A DNA stretch of 43,951 nt from Bacteroidia bacterium (lineage in GTDB: Bacteria; Bacteroidota; Bacteroidia; UKL13-3), in NCBI GenBank assembly GCA_049243005.1, contig JBMLOK010000424.1, positions 9,689 to 53,639 of the forward strand, in the 5' to 3' direction. Below are positions 1,602 to 28,294 of the stretch, piece after piece (the stretch's first letter is position 1; the number at the start of each line of letters is the position of its first letter). A model generated the notes under the pieces. The model was not told where the DNA came from and made no database searches. It saw only the letters and a list, made by a program, of their open reading frames with translations. Made by a program: the position numbers and the translations under genes.

Positions 1602-1648
1602 AATTTAAAAGTTCGCGAAAATACGACCTTAAGTTTGATACAAAAAAT

Positions 1649-1996: not shown

Positions 1997-2024
1997 AATT
2001 TGGTCTCTTTCTTTTAGAAATAAA

Positions 2025-10972: not shown

Positions 10973-12349
10973 ATGGCGACTCATAAAAATAGTTTTAAAA
11001 TATTTATAGTAGAAGATGATACCTGGTATAGGAATTTCTTATCGTATTCGGTAGGATTAAATCCTGACTATGTAGTTGAGTCATTTGCTGATGGTAAAGA
11101 TTTTTTGGCCAACATTCATAAAAAGCCGGATTTAGTAACTGTTGATTACAGTTTACCAGGAATGAATGGTGCTGAATTAATCAAAAAAATCAAAGAGATT
11201 GATGACCAAATCCAAATTGTTGTAATTTCGGGTCAGGAAGACGTTGGTACAGCCGTAGAATTATTGAAGCTAGGTGTATTCGACTACATCATTAAAAATG
11301 AAGATACAAAACCTCGTTTACTCAATTCAATTTTTAATGCCCTTACCAATACCGAGCTAAGAACTGAAATTGATGAACTAAAAGAAGACCTTGGTAAAAA
11401 GTATGATTTCAGCAAAACAATTATTGGTAATAGTGATATCATAAAAAAGACCTTTTCATTAATCGAAAAGGCTGCCAGTAGCAAAATTACAGTATCAATA
11501 ACAGGAGAAACAGGAACAGGAAAAGAATTGGTAGCTAAGGCTATTCATTACCATAGCGAAAGGAAAAAAGCTGCTTTTGTTCCTGTGAATGTGGCTGCAA
11601 TTCCAAAGGATTTAATAGAAAGTGAATTGTTTGGACACGAAAAAGGTTCATTTACTGGTGCTGATGCCAGACGAATTGGGAAGTTTGAACAAGCAAATAA
11701 AGGAACTATATTTTTGGACGAAATTGGTGAGCTTGATTTAAGTTTACAGTCTAAATTATTACGTGTACTTCAAGAAAGAGAAGTTACAAGAGTGGGAGGA
11801 AATCAAACCCTTTCAATTGATGTAAGAGTGATAGTTGCCACTCATAAAAATCTTGCACAAGAAGTTCAGGAAGGAAGATTCAGAGAGGATTTGTACTATC
11901 GATTATTAGGTTTGCCTTTAGCTTTGCCTGCTTTAAGAGATAGAGGTCATGATATCATACACATATCAAAATCTTTTATTGATGAGTATTGCAGAGAAAA
12001 TAAGGTAAAGAAGTTGATTTTAAGTTCTGAAGCACAAAAGAAACTTTTGGATTATACTTATCCCGGAAACATTAGAGAGCTAAAAGCAATTATTGAATTG
12101 GCTTGTGTAATGTGTGATGATGGAGTAATTGAAGGGAAAGACATTACTTACAATTCAGAAAAATCAGTTTCGAATTTTTTAAGTAAGGAAATGACCCTTG
12201 ATGATTATAATAATTTAATCATTAAGAATTATCTTGAAAAATATGATGATAATGTTATAACAGTTGCCAAAAAACTGAATGTGGGTAAATCAACCATATA
12301 CAGAATTATGAAAACTGAAGAATTCCAAAACATTTATAAAAGCAAATAA
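10973..12349 (+). CDS. sigma-54-dependent response regulator (REC + AAA+ enhancer-binding domain + Fis-type HTH; NtrC family)
   Basis: 458 aa. Receiver domain (FIVEDD; [14 protein letters not shown]), Walker A GETGTGKE, sigma-54 contact loop [15 protein letters not shown], and C-terminal [20 protein letters not shown]. Confidence 0.9.
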
Positions 12350-12359
12350 TAAAATCTAT

Positions 12360-12740
12360 ATGAAAAAGACATTACTAGCCCTTGATGATGAAATCAGTAT
12401 CCTTAAAATTCTGGATTTCTATTTTGGAAAAACCTACAATGTTGTAGCAAAACAAAATGGAAAAGAAGCTTTAGAGTGGATGCAACAAGGCGTAATTCCT
12501 GATGTAATTGTGGCTGATATTAATATGCCTGAATTAAATGGAATTGAGTTTATTAAGCAAATTCGTTCTAGTGGATTTTTTAAAGATATTCCTTTAATTA
12601 TGTTATCAGGTAATGAAGGAAGTGCTGAGAAAATTAAGTGTCTAAAATCCGGTGCTGATGATTATTTAATTAAGCCATTCAATCCGGAAGAACTTGAAGC
12701 TCGAATTGATAATATTTTTCGTAGACTAAAAAAGGTTTAA
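12360..12740 (+). CDS. single-domain response regulator (CheY-like)
   Basis: 126 aa: LLALDDE, DVIVADINMPELNGIEF, LMLSG, YLIKPF. No output domain. Confidence 0.85.
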   Translation: MKKTLLALDDEISILKILDFYFGKTYNVVAKQNGKEALEWMQQGVIPDVIVADINMPELNGIEFIKQIRSSGFFKDIPLIMLSGNEGSAEKIKCLKSGADDYLIKPFNPEELEARIDNIFRRLKKV

Positions 12741-12743
12741 TCT

Positions 12744-13940
12744 ATGGAGGCTTCCAATAACAAACCAAGAATTGCATTTATCTCAACTGATGCAGATTCA
12801 ATTGTAGAGTTCTCTCATTTGTTTAAAGAGGAATTTGAAATTTATCATTTCGATAATATTTTTCAATTTATTCAATGGACAAACAAGAATGAACCTGTAA
12901 AATTAATTGTTCCTCATTCTGATTTGTTAGGTGTAAATGGTATTACACTTAGAAAGAATTGTAAGAATGTTCCAAATACAGCCAATGTTCCTTTTGTTTT
13001 AATTGTTGATAGAATCAATGATTCAAGCAGAAATATTGCTTTACATGAGCAATTTGCCGATATTTTTGAACGTCCGGTTAATAAGGAAGAGTTTCTTACT
13101 AGAACAAAATATTTAATTGAAAATCCTCCAAGGTACCATAAGTCAATTTTGGATGCCAGAACGGAATTCCCTAAATACCATATGCCTTTTTCAAAAAGGT
13201 TGTTTGATATTATTGTAGCCTCAATTGCTCTGATAATGTTATCACCGATTTTATTACTGATTATTATAATCATCAGTTTGGAATCTAAAGGACCTGTATT
13301 TTATGCAGCCAAACGTGTGGGAACCGGTTATGTTCTATTTGATTTCTACAAATTCAGATCGATGCGCCAGGGTGCAGATGCCATGTTGAAAAACCTGAAA
13401 CATTTGAACCAATATGCAAACGCACCAGAGGAAAAATCAATTGAAGAATATAAAACCTTTTTGTGTGATGAGTGCAAAACTGCAAATACACCATGCAGAA
13501 ACAAATTATACATGGATGGTGATATGATTTGTGAAAAAGTATTCGCTGATGTAAAAAGAATTAAAGAAGGTTCTAAATTTATTAAAATCGAAAACGATCC
13601 ACGTATTACCAAATTTGGTAAAATCCTTAGAAATACCAGTATGGATGAATTACCTCAATTAATAAATGTATTAAAAGGTGATATGAGTATTGTAGGTAAC
13701 AGACCTCTTCCATTATACGAAGCTGAAAAATTAACTACAGATCATTTCTCTTTAAGATTTCTTGCTCCTGCAGGTATTACAGGTTTATGGCAAGTAACCA
13801 AAAGAGGTAAAGGTGGCCCAATGAGTGAAGAAGAAAGAATGGAACTTGATAATGAATACGCTAAAAATTATTCATTATGGAATGATATCAAATTAATTTT
13901 GAGAACAATTCCGGCCTTGTTCCAAAAGGAAAATGTTTAA
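12744..13940 (+). CDS. priming sugar-phosphate transferase (bacterial sugar transferase / WbaP-EpsE family) with N-terminal divergent receiver-like domain
   Basis: 398 aa. The C-terminal half has the TM helix RLFDIIVASIALIMLSPILLLIIII, then GPVFYAAKRVG, KFRSM, DPRITKFG and DELPQLINVLKGDMSIVGNRPLP. The N-terminal ~125 aa has a receiver-like pattern (RIAFISTDAD; KLIVPHSDLLGVNG). Confidence 0.85.
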   Translation: MEASNNKPRIAFISTDADSIVEFSHLFKEEFEIYHFDNIFQFIQWTNKNEPVKLIVPHSDLLGVNGITLRKNCKNVPNTANVPFVLIVDRINDSSRNIALHEQFADIFERPVNKEEFLTRTKYLIENPPRYHKSILDARTEFPKYHMPFSKRLFDIIVASIALIMLSPILLLIIIIISLESKGPVFYAAKRVGTGYVLFDFYKFRSMRQGADAMLKNLKHLNQYANAPEEKSIEEYKTFLCDECKTANTPCRNKLYMDGDMICEKVFADVKRIKEGSKFIKIENDPRITKFGKILRNTSMDELPQLINVLKGDMSIVGNRPLPLYEAEKLTTDHFSLRFLAPAGITGLWQVTKRGKGGPMSEEERMELDNEYAKNYSLWNDIKLILRTIPALFQKENV

Positions 13941-14021: not shown

Positions 14022-14636
14022 TTAAACCTTTTCCCACTTACCAGAATCTTTGTTATATTGTTTAATAACTCTTGCAGGATTACCTACTGCAATTGAAAAT
14101 GGCGGAATATCTTTTGTTACTACTGCACCTGCTGCTACTACGCAATGTTTTCCAATAGTAACTCCTGCTGTTACAACGGCATTCGCCCCAATCCAACTAT
14201 CATCTTCAATAAATATGGGTGCAGTACTCACCGGCTGTTTATGAATAGGTAAATTGATGTCTTCATAACCATGATTTAATCCACTCATAACAATATTCTG
14301 AGCAAGAATAACATTGTTTCCAACAGTAACTGGTCCAATTACAACATTCCCAATTCCAATTCTGCTATTATTACCAATTATTACAGGACCAACACCATTA
14401 TTTATAGTTGAAAAATCTTCAATAGTACTTCCTTCTCCTAAACTAAAAGGGTTAAATGGGAGTACATCAATTCTGGTTCTTCTTCTAATCACCGAGTTTT
14501 TACCTCTTTGGTGATAGAATGGATTTACAAAATATTTCACCCAAAGTCGTGGACGTGCCTGGCCTCTAGGTATCAGTAAATAATGAACAAATTTTTTAAG
14601 TGATTTATTCGATTTGATTGTTTCTGCTATTCCCAT
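14022..14636 (-). CDS. hexapeptide-repeat (left-handed beta-helix) acyl/acetyltransferase
   Basis: 204 aa with repeated [LIV]G hexapeptide periodicity (IGNNSRIGIGNVVIGPVTVGNNVILAQNIVM; IGANAVVTAGVTIGKHCVVAAGAVV). Confidence 0.85.
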   Translation of the reverse strand: MGIAETIKSNKSLKKFVHYLLIPRGQARPRLWVKYFVNPFYHQRGKNSVIRRRTRIDVLPFNPFSLGEGSTIEDFSTINNGVGPVIIGNNSRIGIGNVVIGPVTVGNNVILAQNIVMSGLNHGYEDINLPIHKQPVSTAPIFIEDDSWIGANAVVTAGVTIGKHCVVAAGAVVTKDIPPFSIAVGNPARVIKQYNKDSGKWEKV

Positions 14637-14642
14637 TACTAA

Positions 14643-15869
14643 TTATAAAGAAGGTTTAACTTTTTCAATGGAATCATAAATAGCTTTTACACTGTTTTCC
14701 CAGGTATGAGTAGCAGCAAATGCCATTCTTGATTCAATTTTTTGAGGATTATTTTCTGCTAATGCTTTTTTAATTAGCGGAGCATAATCATCAGATGTTT
14801 GTGCAAGATAACAATGCTCAGCAAATATTTCCATTGCTTTAGTTGCTGTAGCAACAGTTGGTTTTCCCATAGCCAAATATTCATCAATTTTTCTTGGATA
14901 ATTCCCAATAGTAACCTCATTTAGGATTTGAGGATTGATTGCAACATCAAATCCATTTAAATAATCTGCAAGAACATTTCCAGGTTTAGCTCCTAAAAAA
15001 TGAACATTTGGAAGTTGATGTAAATCGGAGTTTTTAAAACCTTCATCTTCCGGTCCAATTAAAACAATGCTCCAACTAGGTTCTTTTTTAGCAATTTTTC
15101 GAATAATCTCTAAATCAAGCCTTAAAGTATATAAAGCACCTATATATCCAATGATAGGTTGTTTAAGATTCCTCATATCTTCAGGGATTTCTCTACTTAC
15201 CTGAGGATTGAATGCGCTAATATCACAGCCTTGCCCAACATAAAAAGAGTTATTGTTGTGTTTTTGTGCCAGTGAAGCCAAATAAGTGGAGTTTGCACAA
15301 ACCAAATCAACCTTCGACATAAACTCAGCCTCTAATAAATGACCATGTTTTTGCCAGTAAGGAACACTCATCATATTATCACGTGTATAATAAATAGATA
15401 ATGCAGGTTTTAACATTTCCTTTAAATGATAACTGCGAAACATATCACTATCGGTAAAAATGATATAATCCTTAAAGTTTAATTCATCAATTGCTTTTTT
15501 AATTTCTCTTGAAAAACGCTTGTTATTTATTCGGTTAAATAGGCGAAATAAAAATGTAAAAGGAAGCCAGTTTATTGATTCTAATAGTGAAGTAGGTGAG
15601 AGGGTCCAAAGGTTCTCTTTTACAAGCTCTAAATTAGGTTTTAATCCTTCTTTCATTTCTTGCCGAATTTTTACATGGGGCTTGTCTTTTTCCCTTTTTG
15701 CACTTGACCTATCGAATGCATAATTAACATAAAGTACTCTGTTTTGCTTCGATAGTTCCTCTGCAATGTTAATGCAATTGCTACCAATTGGTAGGTAAAA
15801 AGGTTGTAGGCTTGTAATGATAATGTCGCGATTTCTCATGGGTTCCGAGTCTTTTTCAAGTTGATTCAA
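14643..15869 (-). CDS. glycosyltransferase, GT-B fold (GT4-like)
   Basis: 408 aa. The C-terminal half is GT1/GT4-like (VLIGPEDEG...HFLGAKP...FDVAINPQ...KIDEYLAMGKPTVAT). An alternative start at Met11 (15839) is possible. Confidence 0.75.
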   Translation of the reverse strand: MNQLEKDSEPMRNRDIIITSLQPFYLPIGSNCINIAEELSKQNRVLYVNYAFDRSSAKREKDKPHVKIRQEMKEGLKPNLELVKENLWTLSPTSLLESINWLPFTFLFRLFNRINNKRFSREIKKAIDELNFKDYIIFTDSDMFRSYHLKEMLKPALSIYYTRDNMMSVPYWQKHGHLLEAEFMSKVDLVCANSTYLASLAQKHNNNSFYVGQGCDISAFNPQVSREIPEDMRNLKQPIIGYIGALYTLRLDLEIIRKIAKKEPSWSIVLIGPEDEGFKNSDLHQLPNVHFLGAKPGNVLADYLNGFDVAINPQILNEVTIGNYPRKIDEYLAMGKPTVATATKAMEIFAEHCYLAQTSDDYAPLIKKALAENNPQKIESRMAFAATHTWENSVKAIYDSIEKVKPSL

Positions 15870-16012
15870 ATAACAGATTTTTTTTTGAATTTTAGCAGTT
15901 TTAAAAAATTAGACACCATTATTCTAAGGGTTAATAACTGCTTTCATACAATATATGCTTCTGAACTTACTTTGTTGTAGCACAAAATAAATAATGTGCA
16001 TGAACTATAAGC

Positions 16013-16765
16013 ATGAAAAAACTAAGTCTATATTTACTCATTTTGTTCAGTCTTTTTGCAATGTCATTTCAGGCAAATGCACAAGTTGACGAGTCTGTCT
16101 TTTTAGACCCAAAAGTTGATATTGAGGTTTTACTCCCAAGGTTTGATTCTCTATATCAAATTGCTTTAGCTAAAAATGAAAACTTTAAAGCTGAAGCCGC
16201 TGTCATGCGTTCGAACATGTGGACAGAAAGTTATACCCGTTGGTTATGGGCAAATAACGTAAGTGTATTCTATAACTATTCTTTCGGTAGTTTACCATTC
16301 TTTGGTTATGCAGATCCGGTTCAGCCTACTCAGTTAGTATTAGTAACAAGAGGTTATAGAGCAGGTGTAAATATTCAAATTTCAGTTTTTGATGTATTGG
16401 GTCATAAGGGTAGAGTGAATGAAGTAAAGGAAAAAATCATTGCTTCAAAACACCATAAAGAGGCTGTTGCACAGGAATTAAGAAGAAGTTTAGGTCAGTT
16501 TTATGCTGATATGGTTGGCTACAATAGATTATATAAAGCCAGAAACGAGGATTTATTAACTCAAACTGTAGCATGTGCTGTTGCAGAAAAAGAGTGGAGA
16601 GAAGGAACAATTCATATTTCTGAATATTCCAGACAAAAAAATGTGTTGGCTGATGCTGAGTCAGCTTATCATGAGGCTTTCAGGTTTTATTACAGTTCAC
16701 TGTTACAATTTGAGGCTTTATTGGGTGTTCCATTAAAGAGTTTAGTTAAAAAGAAAAAAGGATAA
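16013..16765 (+). CDS. single-repeat TolC/OEP-like outer-membrane protein (half-size)
   Basis: 250 aa with signal peptide ending FQANA|Q. It contains one OEP-type unit: a helix, two amphipathic strands (NVSVFYNYSFGS; GYRAGVNIQISVFD), then about 110 aa of long helices ending LLQFEALLG. Its stop lies 2 nt before the next gene. Confidence 0.55.
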   Translation: MKKLSLYLLILFSLFAMSFQANAQVDESVFLDPKVDIEVLLPRFDSLYQIALAKNENFKAEAAVMRSNMWTESYTRWLWANNVSVFYNYSFGSLPFFGYADPVQPTQLVLVTRGYRAGVNIQISVFDVLGHKGRVNEVKEKIIASKHHKEAVAQELRRSLGQFYADMVGYNRLYKARNEDLLTQTVACAVAEKEWREGTIHISEYSRQKNVLADAESAYHEAFRFYYSSLLQFEALLGVPLKSLVKKKKG

Positions 16766-16767: not shown

Positions 16768-18966
16768 ATGACATTTATACAGTTTTTAAGGATATTCAGC
16801 CGAAACCTAAAGTGGTTAATTTTCTTTCCATTATTGGTTGCTGTTTTGGTATATTTTCTTACCTCGAAAATGCCAAAAGAATACCAATCAGGTACAAGTG
16901 TGTATACCGGTTTTGCATCTGGTTATGGTATTACCAGTGGTGAGGAAGTTCAACGAGTGGATTATTTCGCTGTAAATAATGCATTTGATAACTTATTGGC
17001 TACTGTAAAAGCTCGTCAGACTCTGGAAGACGTTGCTATAAACTTGCTAGCTCAGCATTTATTGTTAGAAATGCCCGATCCTTTGTATTTAAGTGCTGAA
17101 AGTTTTGAACGATTAAAAAACGAAATTGATGAACCTACAAGAGCTAAGTTAATTGTACCTGGTAATTTCTCTGCTACTGTTGATCGTATTACCAAAGAAA
17201 AAAATAGCTCTACCGATAATGTTGTTGTAAAATTATTATCAGACCCTAAAGGACATTATAGTTTACAAACCTTATTCAATAATTTAACTGCTGAACGTAA
17301 ATCAACTTCCGATTTCTTGGATATCTCATTCAAATCAAGTGACCCGGGTGTATGTTTAAATACAGTGAAATTTGTTTCTTTGGTTTTTATCGAAAAGTAT
17401 AAATTCTTAAAAACTTCTGAGACAGTAAATGTTGTTAAATGGTTTGAAGCCAGATTAAAAGATGCTGCTGCTGAATTGAATAATTCGGAAAACAAATTGA
17501 AAGATTTTGGTATCCGTAATAAAATCATCAACTACTACGAACAAGCAAAAGCGGTTGCTATCGAAAATGAAACCAACGAAACTGAATACTACAAAGAGTT
17601 GATGACATTTGAATCGCATAAAAAAGCGATTGCTCGTTTAGAGGATCAATTAGAGTCAAGAGAAATTTTATTGAAAAACAACTCTGAATTAAATCGTTTA
17701 AGAAAGCAATTAGCTGATGCGCATGAAGAATACGAGCGTGCTAAATTGTATACCAATAGTGAAGAGAAAATTGCAAAATTAGCAGCGAAAGTAGATGCAT
17801 TAAAGCAAGAACTAAAGGTTTGGGTGCTACAATACTATAGTATCAACAATACTATGGAGTCTGTTCCTTCTTCTGTTGTGTTGGAAAATTGGTTGAGAGA
17901 AGTAATTGGTGCAGATGCATCTGAAGCTCGCTTACAGGTTTATGTAGATAGAAGAAAAGAATTCGATAGAAAGTATAATGAATTCTCTCCTTTGAACATG
18001 CAAGTTGGTCGACTTGAACGTGAAATTAGTGTTGCTGAAAAACAATACCTTGAAATCCTTCATGGTTTGCATTTAGCTAAATTACGTCAGCAAAATATTG
18101 AGATGTCGAATAACCTTCAGGTTATGGATAGCCCAATTTTCCCAACAAAACCGCTTCCTTCACGTAGATTATTGTTAATCATTCTTTCATTCCTTGCATC
18201 ATTCTTCTTGTTATTGATTTATTTCATTGCAAAAGAATTATTAGATGGTTCAATTAAAAATACTACTCGTGCAGAAGAATTAACTGGATTGAAAACATTC
18301 TCAGCATTACCAAACAGAGGTGGATTGAGTTCTCATTCTAATATTGGAAAAATTGAAAATACATTGTTGGATTACGGTGTAACCAATTTGAAAATTGAAT
18401 TAGAGAATAGTCCTGAAAAAACTGCGAATTATTTGATAACCATCATAAGTTCCCGTGAAATGGAAGGTAAAACTTATGCTGCTCAGAAACTTGCAGAGAA
18501 ACTATACAGCCTTGATTATTCAGTATTATTCCTTTCTAATGATGATGCGTTAGATGATGCAGAAACCGAGGATAGAAGATTTAGAATGATGCGTTATGAT
18601 ATTACAAGCAAATTCTTTAATGCTAAAACAGAAGATAATTTATTACCTGAGTTATCAAGAGTTAGAAAAGATGCTTATAATTTTATCATAGTTGAAATTC
18701 CGGCTATTAGCGTAAATGCTTTACCAAATCAATTAATTAAAAATAGTCGTTTGTCATTATTAGTTTTAGATGCTAGAAGAGGTTGGACAGCTTCTGATGA
18801 TTATATCTTAAAATTATTTAGCAAAGCTTCTAGTTCTGATAACAAAATCATGACTTGGTTAAACCATGTTGAGGTTGAAAACTTAGAGAATTTAGTTGGA
18901 TCAATACCAAAATCTTCAAAGCCAGTTAAAAAGGCATTGAAACAAGAAGTTATTGAAGAAGCATAA
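16768..18966 (+). CDS. polysaccharide co-polymerase / GumC-Wzc-like protein with degenerate C-terminal P-loop domain
   Basis: 732 aa: an N-terminal TM, a Wzz-like region, extended coiled coil, a second TM (LLLIILSFLASFFLLLIYFIA), then a ~240-aa cytoplasmic domain with the P-loop-like IISSREMEGKT. Confidence 0.8.
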   Translation: MTFIQFLRIFSRNLKWLIFFPLLVAVLVYFLTSKMPKEYQSGTSVYTGFASGYGITSGEEVQRVDYFAVNNAFDNLLATVKARQTLEDVAINLLAQHLLLEMPDPLYLSAESFERLKNEIDEPTRAKLIVPGNFSATVDRITKEKNSSTDNVVVKLLSDPKGHYSLQTLFNNLTAERKSTSDFLDISFKSSDPGVCLNTVKFVSLVFIEKYKFLKTSETVNVVKWFEARLKDAAAELNNSENKLKDFGIRNKIINYYEQAKAVAIENETNETEYYKELMTFESHKKAIARLEDQLESREILLKNNSELNRLRKQLADAHEEYERAKLYTNSEEKIAKLAAKVDALKQELKVWVLQYYSINNTMESVPSSVVLENWLREVIGADASEARLQVYVDRRKEFDRKYNEFSPLNMQVGRLEREISVAEKQYLEILHGLHLAKLRQQNIEMSNNLQVMDSPIFPTKPLPSRRLLLIILSFLASFFLLLIYFIAKELLDGSIKNTTRAEELTGLKTFSALPNRGGLSSHSNIGKIENTLLDYGVTNLKIELENSPEKTANYLITIISSREMEGKTYAAQKLAEKLYSLDYSVLFLSNDDALDDAETEDRRFRMMRYDITSKFFNAKTEDNLLPELSRVRKDAYNFIIVEIPAISVNALPNQLIKNSRLSLLVLDARRGWTASDDYILKLFSKASSSDNKIMTWLNHVEVENLENLVGSIPKSSKPVKKALKQEVIEEA

Positions 18967-18985: not shown

Positions 18986-20320
18986 ATGCGTGCCATTACT
19001 CAAATCATTAAAAGTAAAAGCTTTTCCTCTTTGCTCGGGAATGGTATTGGTGCGCTTTTAGGTTTATTAACGTTTGCTTTTTTAGCCAGATTTCTTGACA
19101 AGTCTACCTTTGGTGCTTGGATTGTATTTTTAGCAGTTTATGGCATATTTGATACACTCCGCATTGGAATGGTTTTAAATGCATTGGTTAAAAACTTAGC
19201 ACAGGCAATTAATCCTTCTGAACAAGATCAGGTAATAGGTTCATCATTGGTGATTACCTCAATTATAACCGGACTTTATTTAGTTGTTAACTTAATCGGT
19301 TACATTGTTTGTGTCAGTTTTGATTTGCTTCCGGAATACCATTCCTTCTTTAAATGGTTTGTTTTAATTTCTCTTTTAACTCTACCACATAATTTCTCAA
19401 CCTGGCTGTTAAATGCTAAACTCGAAATTATATCGATGAGCATTATTCGTATATTAAACCAAATTGTTTTTATAGCATATATCTGGTTTTTTATTAAAGC
19501 TAATCCTAGTATCGATCAGGTTTTTATTGGATATGCAATTTCTAATTTAGTTCCAAGTTTACTTTGTGTTTTCTTAGGTTGGGCCGGAATTCAAAAGATT
19601 TTCTCTTATTCAAAAGAAATGATGAGTAAAATTTTTCATTTTGGAAAATACAGCATGGGTACACTTATTGGCTCTAATTTATTAAGAAGTTCAGATACTT
19701 TTATCATTAGTACAATGTTGGGTCCGGGTGGTGTTGCTACTTACAATGTTCCTACTAGAATGATTGAAATTATTGAAATGCCTTTAAGAAGTTTTGCTGT
19801 AACTGCACTACCTCAATATGCAAAACTCTTTGCTGATGGAGCAACTACAGAATTGAAGGCAATTTTCGAAAGAAGAACAGGTTTGGTTTTCTATTTATTA
19901 CTTCCAATTTCCGTTTTAAGTTTTCTTTTTGCCGATTGGATTGTGCTTATTTTAGGTGGAAATAATTATGCTGATTCTGCGATTTTACTAAGATTTTTCG
20001 CTACCTACATGGCTATTCTTCCTTTAGATAAATTCTCAGGGGTTTTATTGGATACAATCAATAAACCTGAAATTAATTTTATCAAGGTAATGATTATGCT
20101 GGTTGTGAATATTTCTTCCGACTACCTTGGCATTTACTTATTCGGAAATCTTGAATCAGTAGCATTTGCTTCTACATTAACCTTTTTATCCGGTATGTTA
20201 TTTGGTTATTACCAATTGAATAAACATCTGGGTTTAAATTTTAAAAATATCCTTGTATTTGGCTGGGATGAATTTCTTCACTGGTCTTTTAAAGTTTTGA
20301 AAATAAATGGCAATAAGTAG
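18986..20320 (+). CDS. oligosaccharide flippase (Wzx-like, MOP superfamily)
   Basis: 444 aa, polytopic (about 12 predicted hydrophobic segments), with polysaccharide-biosynthesis-protein-like organisation and a position inside the EPS locus. Confidence 0.75.
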   Translation: MRAITQIIKSKSFSSLLGNGIGALLGLLTFAFLARFLDKSTFGAWIVFLAVYGIFDTLRIGMVLNALVKNLAQAINPSEQDQVIGSSLVITSIITGLYLVVNLIGYIVCVSFDLLPEYHSFFKWFVLISLLTLPHNFSTWLLNAKLEIISMSIIRILNQIVFIAYIWFFIKANPSIDQVFIGYAISNLVPSLLCVFLGWAGIQKIFSYSKEMMSKIFHFGKYSMGTLIGSNLLRSSDTFIISTMLGPGGVATYNVPTRMIEIIEMPLRSFAVTALPQYAKLFADGATTELKAIFERRTGLVFYLLLPISVLSFLFADWIVLILGGNNYADSAILLRFFATYMAILPLDKFSGVLLDTINKPEINFIKVMIMLVVNISSDYLGIYLFGNLESVAFASTLTFLSGMLFGYYQLNKHLGLNFKNILVFGWDEFLHWSFKVLKINGNK

Positions 20321-21773
20321 ACCAAATACTACAACTTTCTTTTCTCCTGAGGTCAATAATGTATTGATTGGAGCAATGATTCTTATGACCGGTATTACCA
20401 TGTCGATTGTATTGTCGATGGGTAATCTGGGTATTGGTGCTTTAGTAGCTTTCTTACCTGTAATTTTTGGTTTGATTGTGCTAATTATCAATAATCCTCT
20501 TTATGGATTGCTTTTCTATATTAACTATTCATTCTTCTTTACCGGACTAAACAGATACATTGTTGGTGCTCCCTTGGGTTTATCAATTGACGGGGTATTG
20601 TTTTTAACAACCCTATCTATGATTTTCAGGTTAACCAAAGACAATGTTAAACTCTTAAATAATGGTATTTTATATACAACTTTACTTTGGTTTTTATATA
20701 CCTTATTAGAGATAACAAATCCTGATGCAAACAAAATAGGTTCGTGGGTTTACGCAGTAAGGGGGATTTCATTGTATGCTGTACAAACTGTGCCTCTAAC
20801 CCTTTTGTTATTTACTAAAAAGGAAGATTTAAATGCCTTTTTTAAGATTATTTTCGGGTGGGGAATATTCACTGCATTTTGGGGTTGGAAGCAAATTAAT
20901 ATTGGTATCGATGCCTTCGAAAAAAACTGGCTTGATGTTGAAGGTAAATCAACCCACATTCTTGGTGACCAGTTAAGGGCCTTTTCTTTGTATTCAGATG
21001 CAGGACAGTTTGGGGTTACTATGGCTTACGTGGCATTCCTGTTTTTGATTATGGCTTTAGGTCCCTATACAACTCGCAAAAAGTTACTTTATACGGTCGG
21101 TTTTTTTGTTTGTTTGATAGGAATGGGAACATCAGGTAGTCGTGGACCGGTATTCGTAATTTTTGTAGGTATAATTTCATACTTGTTATTGGTTAAAAAC
21201 TATAAAATTTTGTTTCCAGGTATTCTCTCAATAGCCTTGGTATTTTCAATCTTAAAGTTCTCCTATATTGGTAATGCTAACTATCAGATTTATCGTGTAA
21301 GAACAGCTCTTGACCCCAAAGAAGCCTCATTATTGGTTCGATTGGAGAATCAGGCAAAGTTGCGTAAATATTTAGAGACAAGACCATTTGGTTCGGGTAT
21401 TGGTACTACCGACGTTTGGGCAAAAAGATTTTACCCCGGTTCTTATTTGGCTAATTTGCCTACAGATAGCTGGTTTGTAAAAATCTGGGCTGAAAATGGA
21501 GTAGTCGGATTAAGTATTTATGCCTTTTCATTGGCCTTTGTAATTGTAATGGGTGTTGTAAATATTCGTAAATTAAGAAATCCTGATACCCGTCAAAAAA
21601 TGATTGCTTTATATGGTGGATTTTTGGGAATTGTTGTTGCAAGTTTTGGTAATCCGGTATTCGGACAAGCTCCATTGGGAGCTTTGATGTACATCTCGAT
21701 GACAATTCTTAGTACTGCAACTTTATTCGATTATGATGTGGTGGGTAAAAAAGGATTATTAAAGAATGCATAA
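20307..21773 (+). CDS. O-antigen ligase/polymerase-family membrane protein (Wzy-like)
   Basis: 488 aa, polytopic, with the Wzy_C-type motif region MGTSGSRGPVFVIFVG and a large periplasmic loop. The start is uncertain because of a 14-nt overlap with the flippase gene. Confidence 0.75.
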   Translation: MAISRPNTTTFFSPEVNNVLIGAMILMTGITMSIVLSMGNLGIGALVAFLPVIFGLIVLIINNPLYGLLFYINYSFFFTGLNRYIVGAPLGLSIDGVLFLTTLSMIFRLTKDNVKLLNNGILYTTLLWFLYTLLEITNPDANKIGSWVYAVRGISLYAVQTVPLTLLLFTKKEDLNAFFKIIFGWGIFTAFWGWKQINIGIDAFEKNWLDVEGKSTHILGDQLRAFSLYSDAGQFGVTMAYVAFLFLIMALGPYTTRKKLLYTVGFFVCLIGMGTSGSRGPVFVIFVGIISYLLLVKNYKILFPGILSIALVFSILKFSYIGNANYQIYRVRTALDPKEASLLVRLENQAKLRKYLETRPFGSGIGTTDVWAKRFYPGSYLANLPTDSWFVKIWAENGVVGLSIYAFSLAFVIVMGVVNIRKLRNPDTRQKMIALYGGFLGIVVASFGNPVFGQAPLGALMYISMTILSTATLFDYDVVGKKGLLKNA

Positions 21774-22687
21774 TGGAAAATCAACCAAAAATTACCATTA
21801 TCACCGTTAATTATAATGGTTTAATTTACACAGAAGCTTTTTTGAATTCTCTTCGAAAAATTACCTATAAGAATATAGAAATTATAGTTGTTGATAATGC
21901 TTCTCCTCAAGGTGTTGGTAATTTGCAATCAGATTTTCCAGAGATTAAATTGATACTGAGTTCTGAAAATCTTGGTTTTGCAGGAGGTAATAATTTAGGC
22001 ATCAAAGAAGGTTCGGGAAAGTATTTCTTTCTATTAAATAATGATACGGAAGTTGAACCCGGTTTTATTGAACCATTGGTTGAATTAATGGAGTCAAATC
22101 CGCAAATTGGAATTTGTTCATCAAAATTAGTTTACTACTCCCAACCCGATACATTGCAATTTGCAGGTAGCACCGGAATAAACCCTTATACAGGAAGAGG
22201 TTTTGCTATTGGTCATGGTGAAAAAGATGAAGCTAAATTTGATAAAAGCTACAAAACTTTACTTGCTCATGGCGCCGCAATGATGATCAGCAGAGCTGCA
22301 ATAGAAAAGGTTGGAATGATGGCGGAATTGTTCTTTTTGTATTATGAAGAAACAGATTTTTGTGAAAGAATAAAAAGAGGTGGATTCGAAATTTGGTATT
22401 GCGGAAAGTCAAAAGTTTACCACAAAGAATCCATGTCGGTGGGCAAAGAAAGCCCAATGAAAGTGTATTATTTAACCAGAAATCGAATTATTTATACCAG
22501 GAGGAATACAAAAGGACTACAGAAACTGCTAGCACTCAGCTTTTTTTATAGCTTTTCATTTCCGAAGGGAATTTTTAAGTATCTTTTGAGAAAAGAGTTT
22601 AAATTGCTTGCATCCTTTTGGCAAGGTGCCATTTGGAATTTGTACCATTTTCAAATCTATTCAAACACAGGTTTGATCATAAAGTAA
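21773..22687 (+). CDS. glycosyltransferase family 2 (soluble GT-A type)
   Basis: 304 aa: ITIITVNYNG, VVDNAS, GFAGGNNLG, LLNNDTEV. TAATG overlap with the upstream gene. Confidence 0.85.
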   Translation: MENQPKITIITVNYNGLIYTEAFLNSLRKITYKNIEIIVVDNASPQGVGNLQSDFPEIKLILSSENLGFAGGNNLGIKEGSGKYFFLLNNDTEVEPGFIEPLVELMESNPQIGICSSKLVYYSQPDTLQFAGSTGINPYTGRGFAIGHGEKDEAKFDKSYKTLLAHGAAMMISRAAIEKVGMMAELFFLYYEETDFCERIKRGGFEIWYCGKSKVYHKESMSVGKESPMKVYYLTRNRIIYTRRNTKGLQKLLALSFFYSFSFPKGIFKYLLRKEFKLLASFWQGAIWNLYHFQIYSNTGLIIK

Positions 22688-22693
22688 GAAATT

Positions 22694-23875
22694 ATGCCTA
22701 TACTCATTGAAATACTACTTTGGATTCTGTTTGGTGTACTTGCACTAAATGTAAGTTATTTCCTCTTTTTTAGCATGGGTAGTTTAATCCCTCGAAAACC
22801 CAAATATGCTAAGGTAGAAAAATACAACAATTTCCTAGTAATGATTCCGGCTTATAAGGGTGATGAAGTTATTATTCACACAGTTGAAGAAAGCTTCAAA
22901 CAGAATTATCCTCAGGAACATTATCGCATTTGTGTTATTGCTGATAAGCTTCAACCAGAAACAATCAAAGAATTAAATACACATCCTGTTTCTGTAGTTG
23001 AGGTTAAATTTGAAAAAAGTACCAAATCAAAATCATTAAATGCCGCCCTTGATGCAATGGAGGGTTCGGTTTTTGATTATGTTGTTTTGTTGGACATTGA
23101 TAACATTATGGACCCCGCATTCCTTGAAAAGATGAATGCGTTGTTACAACACAATGAAGTTGTAGTGCAGGGACATAGAATGGCTAAAAACTTAAATACT
23201 CCATTTGCAATTTTGGATGCAATAAGTGAGGAAATTAATAACAGTATCTTTAGAAAAGGTCATTATAAACTCGGTCTTTCTTCTGCTTTAATTGGTTCAG
23301 GAAAAGCGATGAGATATGATATTTTTAGAGATATCATGAGAAAGATTGACGCTGTTGGTGGATTCGATAAAGAAATGGAAATTTACTTAATTAGTGCAGG
23401 TATCAGAATTGGATATGACCATACTGCAATTGTGTTGGACGAAAAAGTACAATTACCTGAAGTATTTCAGAACCAAAGAAGAAGATGGTTATCGGCTCAA
23501 TTGGCTTACATGAAAAAATTTGCCTTCAAAGGCATCATCAAAGGTATCTTTACCTTTAAACCCGATTTACTTGATAAAAGTATCCAGTTGACTTTATTAC
23601 CTAGAGCAATTACTATTGGTACTTTAGGAATTTTTGGAGCTCTGTATTTTGTTGGTTTTGAAATGGGGAAATACTTTTTGATGTTATTAGGCTTAAATAT
23701 TTTAGCCATGTGGATTGCTTTACCAAGAAGATTTTATCATCCAAAATATTTAAAGGCCATACTTTATTTCCCAAGTGTTTTTATGTTGATGTTTATGAAT
23801 TTCTTTAAGTTAAAAGGAGCGAATAAAACATTCATTCATACACCTCATCAAGTAAACCAAGATAAAAAGAAATAG
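22694..23875 (+). CDS. membrane-embedded GT2, synthase-like (QxxRW motif)
   Basis: 393 aa: an N-terminal TM, a GT-A core (VMIPAYKGDE; LLDIDN), QNQRRRW, then C-terminal TM segments. Confidence 0.75.
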   Translation: MPILIEILLWILFGVLALNVSYFLFFSMGSLIPRKPKYAKVEKYNNFLVMIPAYKGDEVIIHTVEESFKQNYPQEHYRICVIADKLQPETIKELNTHPVSVVEVKFEKSTKSKSLNAALDAMEGSVFDYVVLLDIDNIMDPAFLEKMNALLQHNEVVVQGHRMAKNLNTPFAILDAISEEINNSIFRKGHYKLGLSSALIGSGKAMRYDIFRDIMRKIDAVGGFDKEMEIYLISAGIRIGYDHTAIVLDEKVQLPEVFQNQRRRWLSAQLAYMKKFAFKGIIKGIFTFKPDLLDKSIQLTLLPRAITIGTLGIFGALYFVGFEMGKYFLMLLGLNILAMWIALPRRFYHPKYLKAILYFPSVFMLMFMNFFKLKGANKTFIHTPHQVNQDKKK

Positions 23876-23883
23876 ACTGTTTA

Positions 23884-25179
23884 ATGATTTATCAGGCCTT
23901 ATATATTATTGAATTAATCCTCCTTTGTTATCTGGGCTTTAATGTCTTGTATGTTTCTGTGTTTTCTATTGCAGGTTCATTCTATAAGCGCACGGATTTC
24001 AGAACTAATAAAGTTGAAAAATACAATCGTTTTGTAATTCTGATTCCGGCATATAAAAGTGATGAGGTTATTTTAAACACTGTTGGTCATGCTTTAAATC
24101 AAAATTATCCAACAGAAAAGTTTGATGTAATTGTAATTGCCGATTCTTTAAAACAATTAACGATTGGCGAACTATTAGTCATGCCAATTAAACTTATTCC
24201 TGTTCAATTTGAAGTTAGTACCAAAGCAAAATCATTAAATACTGCTTTAGGTTTATTACCTGATAACGCTTATGATTATTGTGTAGTTTTAGACGTAGAT
24301 AATATCATGGAGCATGATTTTTTGAAAAAGATAAATGCTCGTCTACAAAATAATGAATTGGTAGTTCAAGGACATCGTACAGCAAAAAATTTAGATTCTG
24401 CATTTGCCATTTTAGATGGAATTAGTGAAGAAATTAATAACCATATTTTCAGAAGAGGACATGTAGCATTTGGCTTGTCAAGCGCTCTTTCAGGCTCAGG
24501 ACAATCTATTAATTATAAGTTTTTCAAAGAAGCAATGTTCAATATTCATTCTCCTGTAGAAGATAAGGAACTTGAATTTTATCTGGTTAAAAACAATATC
24601 AAAGTTTTATTCGAAGAAGATGCATTGGTTTTTGATGAGAAGGTTCAAAACTCAGCTGTCTTTATGAAACAAAGAAAAAGATGGGTGGCTTCTCAATTCT
24701 TCGATTTTAATTCTGTTCTATTAGAAGGTATAGCAAACTTGGTATTACAAGGAAATTTCGACTTTTTCGATAAAGCTTTACAAAGAATATTAATGCCTAG
24801 GGTTCTTTTATTAGGCTTATCGTTTTTTATGGCATTAACTGTAATCACTCCAATTTTTCATTTTGGACCTGTATTTTTTGCCATGTTTATATTGGTTGCT
24901 TTTAGTTATTTAATTGCCATACCAAGTCACTTCTTTAATTCAAATACATTCTTTGCTGCTTTACGTGTTCCTCAGGCTTTTCTATTAATGGTATTAGCTA
25001 TGTTCAGAAGTAAAGGAGCTGCGAAAGTGTTCAATCATACACAACACACCACCATTGTTGGAGCAAAAATTGTTGGTTCTGCTCAGGACTATCAGGAAAA
25101 TCAAAAGCAAATCAATCTAACCAAACAACAAGGTGAAATTTTAACTCTTAATAGCAATAGCAATGAGAATAGGAATTGA
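23884..25179 (+). CDS. membrane-embedded GT2, synthase-like (QxxRW motif), tandem paralog of the preceding gene
   Basis: 431 aa, colinear with 22694-23875 at roughly half of positions by eye (ILIPAYKSDE; VLDVDN; VVQGHRTAKNL; ISEEINN; KQRKRW). It carries an extra Q/N-rich C-terminal tail. Confidence 0.75.
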   Translation: MIYQALYIIELILLCYLGFNVLYVSVFSIAGSFYKRTDFRTNKVEKYNRFVILIPAYKSDEVILNTVGHALNQNYPTEKFDVIVIADSLKQLTIGELLVMPIKLIPVQFEVSTKAKSLNTALGLLPDNAYDYCVVLDVDNIMEHDFLKKINARLQNNELVVQGHRTAKNLDSAFAILDGISEEINNHIFRRGHVAFGLSSALSGSGQSINYKFFKEAMFNIHSPVEDKELEFYLVKNNIKVLFEEDALVFDEKVQNSAVFMKQRKRWVASQFFDFNSVLLEGIANLVLQGNFDFFDKALQRILMPRVLLLGLSFFMALTVITPIFHFGPVFFAMFILVAFSYLIAIPSHFFNSNTFFAALRVPQAFLLMVLAMFRSKGAAKVFNHTQHTTIVGAKIVGSAQDYQENQKQINLTKQQGEILTLNSNSNENRN

Positions 25180-26296
25180 GGCGCAAAGAATCTTCAGAAC
25201 TAAAAAGCATGGCATGGATATGGTTGCCCTTGAGTTAGTGAAACATCTATACGAGGTTGATCAAAAGAATGAATATGTTGTTTTTGTTAAAGAAGATGAT
25301 GACCATGCCTGTTTACCTTCTTTTCCAAATGTTGAATTAAAAGTTTTACCTTCTTCTCCTTATCCAGTTTGGGAACAATGGTTATTACCTAAAGCAGCTA
25401 AAAAAGCCGGTGTAGAGCTTTTACATTGTACCAGTAATACCGCTCCGGTTTTTCCCGGAATGCCTTTGGTTATTACTTTACATGATATTATTTATTTAGA
25501 GAAACTACATGTTAAAGAAGGCACTACATATCAAAAGTTTGGTAACTTATACCGTCGTTGGAATGTACCAAGTGTGGTTGATAAAGCTGAGATGATTATC
25601 ACCGTTTCTGAATTCGAAAAAAACAGAATATGTGATCATTTTGGTTATGAGAATAATCGTGTTGAAGCAATTTACAATGGAGTAAGTCGCCATTTTAACA
25701 GAGTAGAAGATCCTCATAAACTGGCAGAAGCTAAAAAGAAATTCAATTTACCCGATAAATTTATCTTCTTTTTGGGTAATACCGACCCTAAAAAAAATGT
25801 TCATGGGGTTTTAAAAGCACTCAGTATTTTAAAACACAATGGTGAATTACCTTGTAAATTACTTATGCTGGATATCAATAGAGATTACCTTGCAAGAGTA
25901 GCAAATGAAATTAATGATCCTGGAATTTTGGATGAGATTCAATTTACAGGTTATATTCCAAATGCTGATTTACCTGCTATTTATAGTCAGGCAAGTTTGT
26001 TTTTATATCCATCATTAAGAGAAAGTTTCGGAATTCCGATGATTGAAGCAATGAGATGCGGAGTACCTGTTATCACTTCAATTACCTCTTGTATGCCTGA
26101 AGTAGCAGGAGGTGCTGCTTTGTTAACAGACCCTTTTCAGCCAGAACATCTTGCTGCATCTATTAGGGACTTAATCCACAATGAAGCCAAAAAGAAGGAG
26201 CTTGTAGCCCTTGGTTATGAGCGAAGTAAATTGTTTTCATGGGTTGAAAATGCCCGAAAAACAGTTGATATCTATCACCAAATATTGAATAAATAA
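25163..26296 (+). CDS. glycosyltransferase family 4 (GT-B)
   Basis: 377 aa: MRIGIEAQRIF..., then the EX7E-type region PSLRESFGIPMIEAMRCGVPVITS. Confidence 0.85.
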   Translation: MRIGIEAQRIFRTKKHGMDMVALELVKHLYEVDQKNEYVVFVKEDDDHACLPSFPNVELKVLPSSPYPVWEQWLLPKAAKKAGVELLHCTSNTAPVFPGMPLVITLHDIIYLEKLHVKEGTTYQKFGNLYRRWNVPSVVDKAEMIITVSEFEKNRICDHFGYENNRVEAIYNGVSRHFNRVEDPHKLAEAKKKFNLPDKFIFFLGNTDPKKNVHGVLKALSILKHNGELPCKLLMLDINRDYLARVANEINDPGILDEIQFTGYIPNADLPAIYSQASLFLYPSLRESFGIPMIEAMRCGVPVITSITSCMPEVAGGAALLTDPFQPEHLAASIRDLIHNEAKKKELVALGYERSKLFSWVENARKTVDIYHQILNK

Positions 26297-26352
26297 TTAA
26301 GAAAAAATCCTCAAATTGCATTTATAAAGCCCCCTGATAAAATTTTAAAAAC

Positions 26353-27123
26353 ATGGAAACTACATACAGATCAGCAACCACCTATTCAGATATAGAAGAT
26401 ATCAAAAGGTTAGATTTCATTGTGAATTCAATTAAAGCAATGAATAATCCTGATGCCAAAATCCTGGATATTGGATGTGGTAATGGAAATATTAGTCTTG
26501 CTTTAGGTTCATTGGGATACAATGTTACCGGAGTAGATATTGACCAGGCTTCAATTGATACTGCAAGTAGCAGAAATACATTTTCAAATGTGAAATTTGA
26601 AGTTTTAGATGCCAATTCATTTGCATTAAATGATGCTTTTGATGCAGTAGTTTGTTCTGAGGTTCTTGAACATCTTCATAAACCTTATGAATTACTTGAA
26701 AGTATTTACCGCATTTTAAAACCGGGTGGTGTTTTTGCAGCAACTGTTCCTAATGGATATGGTCCTCGCGAAATGCTAATCACTAGACCAATGCAATGGT
26801 TAGGTAAACATAATTTAGATAAAGGTATCATTGCTTTCAAAAAACTTTTAGGATATAGTGCAAAAACTTTACAGTCATCAAATGAAGATTTAACTCACGT
26901 TCAGTTTTTTAGTGTGGGTGGTTTCAATCGTTTACTAAAAGGTGTTGGATTCAAAGCTCTTGAATACCAAAATGCCGATTTCCTTGAAAGAATTTTCCCG
27001 TTTTCATTGCTTACCAGAAGAATTAAAGCTTTACAAAGTTTTGATTGCTGGTTAGTTGATTTTTTACCTCGTCATTTTACCTGCGGTTTTTATACTTCAT
27101 GGACAAAACTAGGCAAACAATAG
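26353..27123 (+). CDS. class I SAM-dependent methyltransferase
   Basis: 256 aa: motif I ILDIGCGNGNIS, then VTGVDID and VVCSEVLEHL. Confidence 0.8.
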   Translation: METTYRSATTYSDIEDIKRLDFIVNSIKAMNNPDAKILDIGCGNGNISLALGSLGYNVTGVDIDQASIDTASSRNTFSNVKFEVLDANSFALNDAFDAVVCSEVLEHLHKPYELLESIYRILKPGGVFAATVPNGYGPREMLITRPMQWLGKHNLDKGIIAFKKLLGYSAKTLQSSNEDLTHVQFFSVGGFNRLLKGVGFKALEYQNADFLERIFPFSLLTRRIKALQSFDCWLVDFLPRHFTCGFYTSWTKLGKQ

Positions 27124-27124
27124 T

Positions 27125-28294
27125 ATGAGTATTTTTGAATGTATTTTTTGGATTGGAATTGCAATTGTCTTTTATAGCTATATCGGCTATGGAATTCTGC
27201 TATATTTTCTTGTAAAATTGAAGAACATTTTTTCTTCTCCAAAACAATATGATTTAAAGTACGAGCCTACTGTTAGTTTAGTTGTTCCTTGTTTTAATGA
27301 AGCTGATTATATCGAAGAAAAAATTAAAAACAGTTTACAATTAGAATATCCTAAAGAAAAACTTCAATTAATTTTTATTAGTGATGGTTCAAACGATGAT
27401 ACTGCATTAAGAGTTTCAAAATATCCACAGGTATTAGCACTTCACGAAGATGCCCGAAATGGTAAAGCAGCAGCTATGAATCGTGCCATGCAGTTTGTAA
27501 CAGGTGAAATTGTTGTATTCTGTGATGCTAATACAGATATCAACCCTGAAGCAATCAGAGAAATGGTTAAACATTATGCTGATTCTGAAGTAGGTGCTGT
27601 TACCGGAGAAAAACGAATTATCACCAAGGATAAAGAAAATGCAAGTGGTGCAGGTGAAGGCATTTATTGGAAGTATGAAAGCTTTTTGAAACAATTGGAT
27701 TCTGATTTTTATACAATTGTTGGTGCTGCAGGTGAATTAATGAGTTATAGAAAATCTCTATACAAAGAATTACCTAAAGATTCTCTTTTAGATGACCTGA
27801 TGCAAAGTATGCAAATCGCTCTTGAAGGTTACCGAGTTATTTATGAAAAGAACGCATATGCTGCTGAAACTGCTTCTGCGAATGTAGGTGAAGAACTAAA
27901 AAGAAAAATTAGAATTGCTGCAGGTGCATGGCAAAGTATGAGTCGTTTGCCCAAAGCATTTAATATCTTCTCGAATTTTAAAGTGAGTTTCTTATTCATT
28001 TCTCATAGAGTTTTAAGATGGACATTAGCCCCTTTATCATTATTGGTTTTATTGATTGTTAATTTTCTGCTTATGATAAATATTGGTGGTATTTATACTC
28101 CAATTATGGTAGCTCAGATTTTATTCTATTCAATGGCTTTACTTGGTTGGTACCTTGCCAATAAACAAATAAAGGTCAAAATTCTATTCGTTCCTTATTA
28201 CTTTTTTATCATGAATCTTTGCATGTACCTCGGACTCGCTAGATTTCTAAAAGGAAAACAAAGTGCTAATTGGGAAAGAGCCAAAAGAGCTTAA
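27125..28294 (+). CDS. membrane-embedded GT2 (Glyco_tranf_2_3-like)
   Basis: 389 aa: an N-terminal TM, VSLVVPCFNE, FISDGSNDDT, VFCDAN, RKIRIAAGAWQS, and 3-4 C-terminal TM segments. Confidence 0.8.
   Translation: MSIFECIFWIGIAIVFYSYIGYGILLYFLVKLKNIFSSPKQYDLKYEPTVSLVVPCFNEADYIEEKIKNSLQLEYPKEKLQLIFISDGSNDDTALRVSKYPQVLALHEDARNGKAAAMNRAMQFVTGEIVVFCDANTDINPEAIREMVKHYADSEVGAVTGEKRIITKDKENASGAGEGIYWKYESFLKQLDSDFYTIVGAAGELMSYRKSLYKELPKDSLLDDLMQSMQIALEGYRVIYEKNAYAAETASANVGEELKRKIRIAAGAWQSMSRLPKAFNIFSNFKVSFLFISHRVLRWTLAPLSLLVLLIVNFLLMINIGGIYTPIMVAQILFYSMALLGWYLANKQIKVKILFVPYYFFIMNLCMYLGLARFLKGKQSANWERAKRA

Follow-up and report, generated by a model that had tools for sequence, protein, structure and literature searches.

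To our knowledge, all characterised polysaccharide pathways of diderm bacteria that depend on a polysaccharide co-polymerase (PCP) use an OPX (outer-membrane polysaccharide export) protein of the Wza type at the outer membrane. OPX genes normally adjoin their PCP gene, and recent work has subdivided the OPX proteins into three classes. The outer membrane factors (OMFs) of the TolC family (PF02321; TCDB 1.B.17), such as TolC, OprM, CusC and CmeC, contain two structural repeats, form a trimer in the case of TolC, and work with a membrane-fusion or adaptor protein and an RND, ABC or MFS pump. Tripartite pumps of this kind were the inspiration for the PCP/OPX model (PMC6003464), and as far as could be found the analogy has not been realised with a TolC-type protein in the literature. 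This study concerns a locus in which the two families meet. It lies in a stretch of 43,951 nt from a Bacteroidia bacterium (UKL13-3; assembly GCA_049243005.1, contig JBMLOK010000424.1, positions 9,689-53,639 of the forward strand), which as a whole is called the window in the following. A gene at 16013..16765 on the + strand encodes a half-size, single-repeat protein of the TolC/OEP family, here termed half-OEP, and is directly followed by a PCP gene. On balance, we favour the reading that copies of this protein form a homo-oligomeric, TolC-like exit duct which is docked on the PCP and replaces Wza/OPX. The original prediction, made from the DNA sequence, knew of no characterisation of the arrangement, and a literature search, in which most subscription journals fell outside the range, likewise yielded no publication on a half-size TolC with a PCP and no account of half-size, hexameric or mini TolC or of TolC-like proteins in PCP/Wzy pathways.

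The half-OEP gene starts with ATG and encodes 250 aa. Residues 1-23 (16013..16081, + strand) form a predicted Sec signal peptide with the cleavage site between ANA and Q; the N-terminus, MKKLSLYLLILFSLFAMSFQANA followed by Q, is of the signal-peptidase-I type and carries no lipobox cysteine, as read directly from the sequence. The residue after the predicted cut, Q24, is conserved in 90% or more of the members of the broad family. As glutamine habitually follows the signal-peptidase I cleavage site in Bacteroidetes, the conserved Q24 is read as an instance of this habit. The OEP profile (PF02321) matches in one stretch, with residues 44-238 aligned to profile positions 1-187 of 187 (E 5.6e-13; 49.6 bits at a cut-off of 22). 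The protein is one complete OEP repeat and not two, and the NCBIfam collection holds no model that matches the family.

The fold leads to the same assignment. In an AlphaFold2 (AF2) model built on 28 homologs, with a mean predicted local distance difference test (pLDDT) of 82, a helix at residues 44-82 is followed by a strand region (84-122), a helix of 72 residues (125-196), a tight turn and a further helix (202-237), which matches the layout of helix, strands and long helices originally described. The pLDDT of the hairpin region is low (54-65), which is expected because this is a monomer model of what would be an oligomeric barrel. When the model was compared with the PDB by Foldseek, the significant matches were outer-membrane factors only (OprM, TolC, CmeC, CusC, VceC, SilC and OprN), with a probability of 1.0 and E values down to 1.3e-5. 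The TM-scores are about 0.55 when normalised to the query (TMq) and about 0.32 when normalised to the targets (TMt), and therefore the model spans about half of each target. By hhalign, the family aligns end-to-end with residues 226-427 of the E. coli TolC precursor, that is, with its second repeat, at 92% probability, and the hidden Markov model of the broad family finds each of the two structural repeats of E. coli TolC once (25-209 and 230-427). A profile of the family sequences searched against PDB chains gave no match at E<0.01, so that the link to solved TolC-type structures comes from the fold search only. The half-OEP corresponds to a single structural repeat of TolC-type channels; this part of the original prediction is borne out by the PF02321 search, the AF2 model, Foldseek, hhalign and the double match of the family profile on TolC.

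Two regions of the protein stand out. The first is a predicted outer-membrane β-hairpin at residues 83-125 (16259..16387, + strand), whose two strands, at about 83-92 and 115-125, are joined by an extracellular loop. In both strands, 86 family members show a strict alternation of hydrophobic and polar residues, and aromatic residues are found at the positions of W79, Y89, Y91, Y115 and F126. Such alternation together with an aromatic girdle is the pattern expected for a transmembrane β-hairpin, and the hairpin is predicted on this basis. Moreover, hhalign places the 'LPL' of residues 123-125 on the 'SLPIY' strand of TolC. Outside a set of 177-aa variants, which are discussed below, the membrane-type amphipathic hairpin and the girdle are kept down to about 20% identity. 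The second region is a periplasmic helix-turn-helix tip at residues 176-210 (RNEDLLTQTVACAVAEKEWREGTIHISEYSRQKN; 16538..16642, + strand), which was delineated by conservation and hhalign and is proposed here as the docking surface. Conservation in the close-family alignment reaches its maximum in the blocks covering 191-210 (AEKExxEGxIxxxEYxRQKN), at the periplasmic turn. In the broad-family alignment the peak lies at 41-50 (LPxLDS), with 191-210 among the top blocks and 231-240 also high. G198, in the 'REGTI' motif, is invariant and is set by hhalign on the tip glycine of the 'SVGT' turn of TolC.

The half-OEP therefore shares with TolC and the other OMFs the succession of a helix, a β-hairpin, a long helix running down, a turn with a tip glycine and a helix running up, as well as the C-terminal 'LE.L.G' motif. 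It differs from them in having about 250 aa and one repeat instead of two, in the six or more copies that a channel would need where TolC is a trimer, and in its partner gene, which encodes a Wzc-like PCP in a Wzx/Wzy operon instead of a membrane-fusion or adaptor protein with its RND, ABC or MFS pump. Fold and profile both place the half-OEP in the OEP superfamily, and it lacks two canonical features of OMFs, namely the second repeat and the membrane-fusion protein/transporter partner.

The half-OEP belongs to a sizeable family of proteins of similar length. A word-indexed search found 46 close homologs with 41-97% identity and lengths of 164-308 aa, mostly 244-283 aa, and those with names are called 'TolC family protein' and come from Bacteroidia metagenome-assembled genomes (MAGs). 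When 1.84 billion cluster representatives (clustered at 50% identity) were searched exhaustively with a profile, 504 clusters reached E<=1e-3, of which 220 reached E<=1e-10. Of the 504 relatives, the best 150 are all between 89 and 322 aa long, mostly 235-290 aa, and 148 of these 150 contain one matched stretch. With a profile made from distant members, the half-size proteins score at least 119 bits and are separated by a gap from full-length TolCs (417-514 aa), which score at most 97 bits. The carriers are freshwater lake and pond MAGs, activated-sludge contigs, one Crocinitomicaceae genome and the cultured Larkinella soli.

The gene downstream (16768..18966, + strand) encodes a Wzc/PslE-like PCP of the PCP-2a-like type, 732 aa long, with a degenerate kinase-like cytoplasmic domain. 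A gap of 2 nt separates the TAA stop of the half-OEP gene, whose last letter is at 16765, from the ATG of the PCP gene at 16768. As had been claimed from the sequence, the downstream product is a PCP, which rests on TIGR03007, on profile matches to PslE and Wzc and on a fold match to Wzc. Among the family models, TIGR03007 matches at E 2e-16, below its curated cut-off, and GNVR at E 4e-4, below the Pfam cut-off, while the Wzz match is weak. Against the PDB, the profile finds PslE (E 1.4e-7) and Wzc (E about 1e-6), in entries which hold at least eight copies of the chain; PslE is reported to be octameric (PMC13434223). The AF2 model (pLDDT 80) contains terminal helices at 3-32 and 467-491, which are both read as transmembrane. 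It also has an alpha/beta base, a set of periplasmic helices (58, 72, 26 and 79 residues long) and a cytoplasmic P-loop domain. Foldseek matches the model to full-length Wzc (E 1.8e-19) and its C-terminal part to domains of bacterial tyrosine kinases (BY-kinases). The architecture is that of a PCP-2a, with two transmembrane helices around a long helical periplasmic domain and weak Wzz/GNVR matches.

E. coli Wzc and P. aeruginosa PslE share these two transmembrane helices, the long helical periplasmic domain and the cytoplasmic P-loop domain with the PCP of the window, which is distinguished from them by the kinase-like part and by its partner gene, a half-OEP in place of an OPX. The cytoplasmic domain (residues ~550-732) carries a Walker A-like SSREMEGKT and a degenerate Walker B-like VEIPA, and no tyrosine is present among the last 40 residues, so that a C-terminal tyrosine cluster is missing. 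On these two counts it departs from an active BY-kinase and is probably a pseudokinase or an ATP-binding scaffold and not an autokinase. Conservation peaks at residues 71-100, 241-270 and 421-450; the block at 241-270, which forms the turn between the first two long helices of the model, is taken as the distal tip. The best model for this PCP, TIGR03007, describes the chain-length determinant of XrtA systems. The window itself has no exosortase; VIT-domain protein and exosortase (EpsH family) genes lie at 697-4608, about 5 kb upstream of the module, in three loci with 63% identity, one from activated sludge (L001) and two from JGI metagenomes (L002 and L003).

The pairing of the two genes extends far beyond the window. 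A half-OEP gene lies directly 5' of a PCP homolog in 69 of 70 genomic contexts, over an identity range of 24-98%, which substantiates the coupling that the original prediction had proposed from a single locus. In the 62 loci reached via the half-OEP (L001-L062), whose open reading frames (ORFs) were labelled by homology, the half-OEP gene precedes the PCP gene on the same strand without exception (62/62), with a gap between them of -4 to 54 nt. Of these loci, 57 come from species-representative GTDB genomes, all of them MAGs, and were found in a scan with the close-family alignment, so that they belong to one Bacteroidota lineage; they are labelled mostly as Bacteroidota/Bacteroidia and originate mostly from lakes and ponds. 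A few titles name Vulcanococcus, Bifidobacterium or Methylacidiphilales, which is taken as mislabelling or mis-binning. The contexts are usually Wzx/Wzy clusters, and the pair persists where the remaining operon differs (L016, L049 and L058-L061).

The same module is found among distant members with 24-31% identity (L064 of the cultured species Larkinella soli, L065 of a genome measuring 5.4 Mb, L066 and L070). There the order is a receiver, a phosphoglycosyl transferase with or without a receiver (REC) domain, the half-OEP and a PCP of 722-874 aa, with Wzx, and Wzy where seen, elsewhere within the cluster; these PCPs are 30-34% identical to that of the window over their full length. The survey for half-size OEP genes beside PCP genes, which had been suggested together with the original prediction, thus found same-strand pairing both throughout L001-L062 and in the distant loci. 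The pairing also holds when approached from the other side. Starting from PCP homologs with about 40% identity, a family member of 258-270 aa was found directly upstream in L067 (Crocinitomicaceae), L068 and L072. One genome (GCA_002256395.1) contains two paralogous modules, L021 and L072, whose PCPs are 76% and 42% identical to that of the window and are each preceded by their own half-OEP; in the second module, the pair is followed only by a Wzy gene.

Within these loci, the OPX protein is conspicuous by its absence. The Pfam scan of the window covered the ORFs of at least 100 aa, apart from the glycosyltransferase (GT) and methyltransferase ORFs at 21.8-28.3 kb, which take their labels from homology to and synteny with annotated relatives. 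No Poly_export domain (PF02563) was found among the scanned ORFs, including those scanned between 10.9 and 28.3 kb, and the idea of a Wza hidden in the window was dropped on this result. The relatives were read 10 kb to each side of the gene, which amounts to flanks of 1.12 Mb in total. A jackhmmer search of all ORFs and a tblastn search of the 1.12 Mb, with E. coli Wza as the single seed, found no Wza, and Pfam identified no OPX among 10 recurrent unlabelled neighbour families, which are housekeeping genes (VWA-like, cytochrome c, TonB receptor, RsmB, aminotransferase, MBL and MetH). A Wza in the flanks of the relatives was rejected as a candidate on these negative searches. The early claim that 10.9-28.3 kb of the window lacks a Wza/OPX gene thus held for the ORFs scanned with Pfam and for those labelled by homology and synteny, and extends to the flanks of the relatives, where none was detected.

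The half-OEP itself contains no Poly_export/PES domain (PF02563) according to Pfam. It occupies the position typical of an OPX gene, beside a PCP gene in a polysaccharide cluster, which is a likeness of role and position and not of ancestry. Its inferred role and its place next to the PCP are what it has in common with Wza and the other OPX proteins (PF02563; TCDB 1.B.18; Classes 1-3, PslD-PslE, WzaB-WzpB-WzcB; PMC12881504, PMC13434223, PMC12819527, PMC9601211). Unlike them, it has no relationship to OPX proteins in sequence or fold, lacks PES/Poly_export and is not a lipoprotein, and its periplasmic part would be a helical tunnel where OPX proteins have stacked alpha/beta rings. The half-OEP would thus sit where Wza, PslD or WzaB-WzpB sit, while working more like TolC on its adaptor.

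How such a duct would work can be sketched from the models. Several identical copies of the half-OEP would assemble into a TolC-like β-barrel with an α-helical tunnel below it, to which each copy would contribute an antiparallel pair of periplasmic helices, about 100 Å long, ending in the conserved helix-turn-helix tip. These tips would dock end-to-end on the distal helical tips of the PCP and so form a closed conduit in the place that is otherwise taken by Wza/OPX. The polymer, made by the Wzx and Wzy of the same operon and built inside or under the PCP cage, would leave through the duct to the surface. This docking would resemble that of AcrAB-TolC, MacAB-TolC and HlyBD-TolC, in which a helical tunnel stands tip-to-tip on the helical hairpins of a periplasmic protein anchored in the inner membrane. 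The tripartite pumps differ in having an energised transporter and in raising no question of six- against eight-fold symmetry; the partner of the half-OEP would be a PCP together with Wzy, and its substrate a long polymer.

The dimensions fit. In the AF2 models, the 72-residue helix of the half-OEP measures about 108 Å and the 72-79-residue helices of the PCP about 110-118 Å, and the sum is comparable with the spans of about 210 Å and 250 Å quoted for AcrAB-TolC and Wza-Wzc, respectively (PMC12881504). Conservation peaks at both of the proposed contact ends, at residues 191-210 of the half-OEP and at the distal turn of the PCP (241-270), and the tips are nearly invariant. As to copy number, a trimer of the half-OEP would give only 6 strands. 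Six copies would provide the 12 strands and 12 helices of TolC, while eight copies would match an octameric PCP one-to-one. The eight-fold arrangement appears to be an equally live option because the solved PCP relatives, Wzc and PslE, are octamers. Either the PCP would be hexameric, or the duct would be eight-fold with 16 strands, or the symmetries would be mismatched. Tentatively, and with less confidence than for the duct as such, it can be proposed that in many Bacteroidota Wzx/Wzy polymers cross the outer membrane through the half-OEP duct alone, possibly as an eight-fold channel of 16 strands and 16 helices standing one-to-one on an octameric PCP.

Several points weigh against the duct. 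The oligomerisation of the half-OEP, its copy number, its insertion into the outer membrane, its contact with the PCP and the passage of polysaccharide are all things that we infer. The symmetry is a problem in itself, as the solved relatives of the PCP are octameric while six single-repeat copies would be called for in a TolC-like tunnel. One family member (241 aa; L071:1511-2236), the sole exception to the pairing, has no PCP gene on its 7-kb contig. The genes that surround this orphan are a cyclopropane-fatty-acid synthase-like gene and unrelated genes. With regard to the missing OPX, an unlinked Wza/OPX gene may exist beyond the 10-kb flanks, and a very divergent OPX could have escaped a search that consisted of one seed and of Pfam on selected ORFs. 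OPX proteins are common in Bacteroidetes, with about 24% of the genomes encoding Class 1 and about 38% encoding Class 2B (bioRxiv 10.1101/2022.02.11.480155).

A further objection comes from the family itself. In five species (L058-L062; half-OEP ORFs of 534 nt, e.g. in the region of L058:8802), and also in P0050, the half-OEP has 177 aa. About 70 residues have been deleted in frame, and what is lost is exactly the predicted β-hairpin and the membrane-proximal helix ends, whereas signal peptide, LPPLDS motif and the entire tip are still present. The gene still precedes a PCP gene in a reduced operon (half-OEP, PCP, Wzy, GT2), and no Wzx was found within the stretch read in L058-L062. The variant is maintained by selection, because the pairwise ratios of non-synonymous to synonymous substitution rates (dN/dS) between the five species are 0.09-0.26, and therefore the helical part is under selection even where spanning of the membrane is impossible. 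The hairpin thus proves to be a module in its own right, and the helical part facing the PCP to have a separate function that is under selection. The variant thus supports PCP binding and at the same time weakens pore formation as the essential activity of the family.

It is also the main support for a different role, in which the half-OEP would be an accessory partner whose helical bundle binds or caps the periplasmic top of the PCP as a tether, gate or chain-length modulator, with the polymer leaving through an unlinked OPX or porin. That the variants keep the tip and the N-terminal motifs under purifying selection fits this role, as do the frequency of OPX proteins in Bacteroidetes given above and the limit of 10 kb to which the flanks were read, and in Class-3 OPX systems the periplasmic and pore functions are indeed split between proteins (PMC12819527). 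Against an accessory role stands the membrane-type amphipathic hairpin with its aromatic girdle, which all other members conserve at such low identities. Furthermore, no OPX was detected in about 70 loci, although OPX genes normally adjoin the PCP gene, and each PCP paralog has its own half-OEP. An accessory role is considered rather unlikely, and the homo-oligomeric duct remains the reading that we prefer. The observation behind the original prediction is confirmed, while its functional interpretation is partly supported and plausible.

It is very improbable that the half-OEP is an ordinary efflux or type-I-secretion outer-membrane factor which is found here by chance or serves, for example, the 1814-aa protein encoded further downstream. 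Membership of the OEP superfamily and the large, secreted-looking product of the ORF at 28517-33961 would suit such a factor. However, the gene is paired with a PCP in all contexts save one down to 24% identity, and in none of the gene tables examined does the pair have a gene for an HlyD/membrane-fusion protein or for an RND or ABC exporter as its neighbour. In addition, the related loci yielded no relative of the 1814-aa gene in a BLAST search (E<=1e-5), and a type-I-secretion link to this neighbour was dropped for that reason. With half the length of a canonical OMF (472 +/- 30 aa; PMC4827864), the ORF might seem to be what truncation has left of a full-length TolC gene, or a mis-called piece of one. 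This reading is practically ruled out by the size, length distribution and conservation of the family, with hundreds of same-length relatives covered from N- to C-terminus including signal peptide and C-terminal motif, by 41 invariant columns in the close-family alignment, and by flanks that consist of a divergent GT1 gene and the PCP gene and encode no second repeat upstream or downstream.

The remainder of the locus is that of a polysaccharide cluster. Upstream of the half-OEP, on the + strand, Pfam and NCBIfam identify a sigma-54 activator with a receiver domain (10973-12349), a stand-alone receiver (12360-12740) and a phosphoglycosyl transferase (Bac_transf) with an N-terminal receiver-like domain (12744-13940). 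They are followed on the - strand by a hexapeptide acyltransferase (14022-14636) and a GT1-family glycosyltransferase (14643-15869), both identified by Pfam and transcribed divergently from the half-OEP gene; the position of these two genes (14022..15869) is kept in most relatives. The AT-rich divergent intergenic region of 143 bp (15870..16012) presumably contains both promoters. Matches to the sigma-54 promoter consensus number 17 in the window against a chance expectation of 18, and none falls within 15870-16012. A pair of receiver and phosphoglycosyl transferase genes, the latter with or without a REC domain, also adjoins the half-OEP/PCP pair in L064-L066 and L070, with a receiver fusion recorded in L065 and L066, and a sigma-54 activator precedes the receiver and phosphoglycosyl transferase in this window and in L066. 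The arrangement suggests that a phosphorelay controls the step with which polymer synthesis begins.

Downstream of the PCP gene, on the + strand, a Wzx-type flippase (18986..20320; Polysacc_synt, E 3.4e-19) and a Wzy-type polymerase (20307..21773; Wzy_C, E 5.8e-10) are encoded, both of which are syntenic in the relatives. The same operon continues with a block of GT2, GT2, GT2, GT4, methyltransferase and GT2 genes (21773..28294, + strand), assigned by homology to annotated genes of L001-L005. The 1814-aa ORF beyond it, also on the + strand, has no Pfam match. Its residues 291-931 are repeated at 954-1594 with an identity of 97.5% in amino acids and 97.6% in DNA, at an offset of 1989 nt, and this near-identical repeat of 1.9 kb could be an assembly artefact. 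Elsewhere in the window, an ORF of 282 aa with a TTG start (9899-10747, + strand) has no Pfam match and overlaps the end of a DedA/VTT gene (9373-10014). As homologs are present in about nine of the closest related loci, the gene is probably genuine and begins at a later start codon.

If the duct exists, it would constitute a fourth, OPX-independent route of polysaccharide export that is mechanistically different from the three classes of OPX systems. Among natural channels of the TolC type, it would be the first that is made from unduplicated protomers, with a stoichiometry other than that of a trimer. A natural single-repeat protomer could be used to test the origin of the duplicated, pseudo-six-fold TolC as well as other copy numbers, and the cultured carrier Larkinella soli makes the idea directly testable. 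For the organisms themselves, such a duct would explain how many environmental Bacteroidota secrete their matrix polymers.

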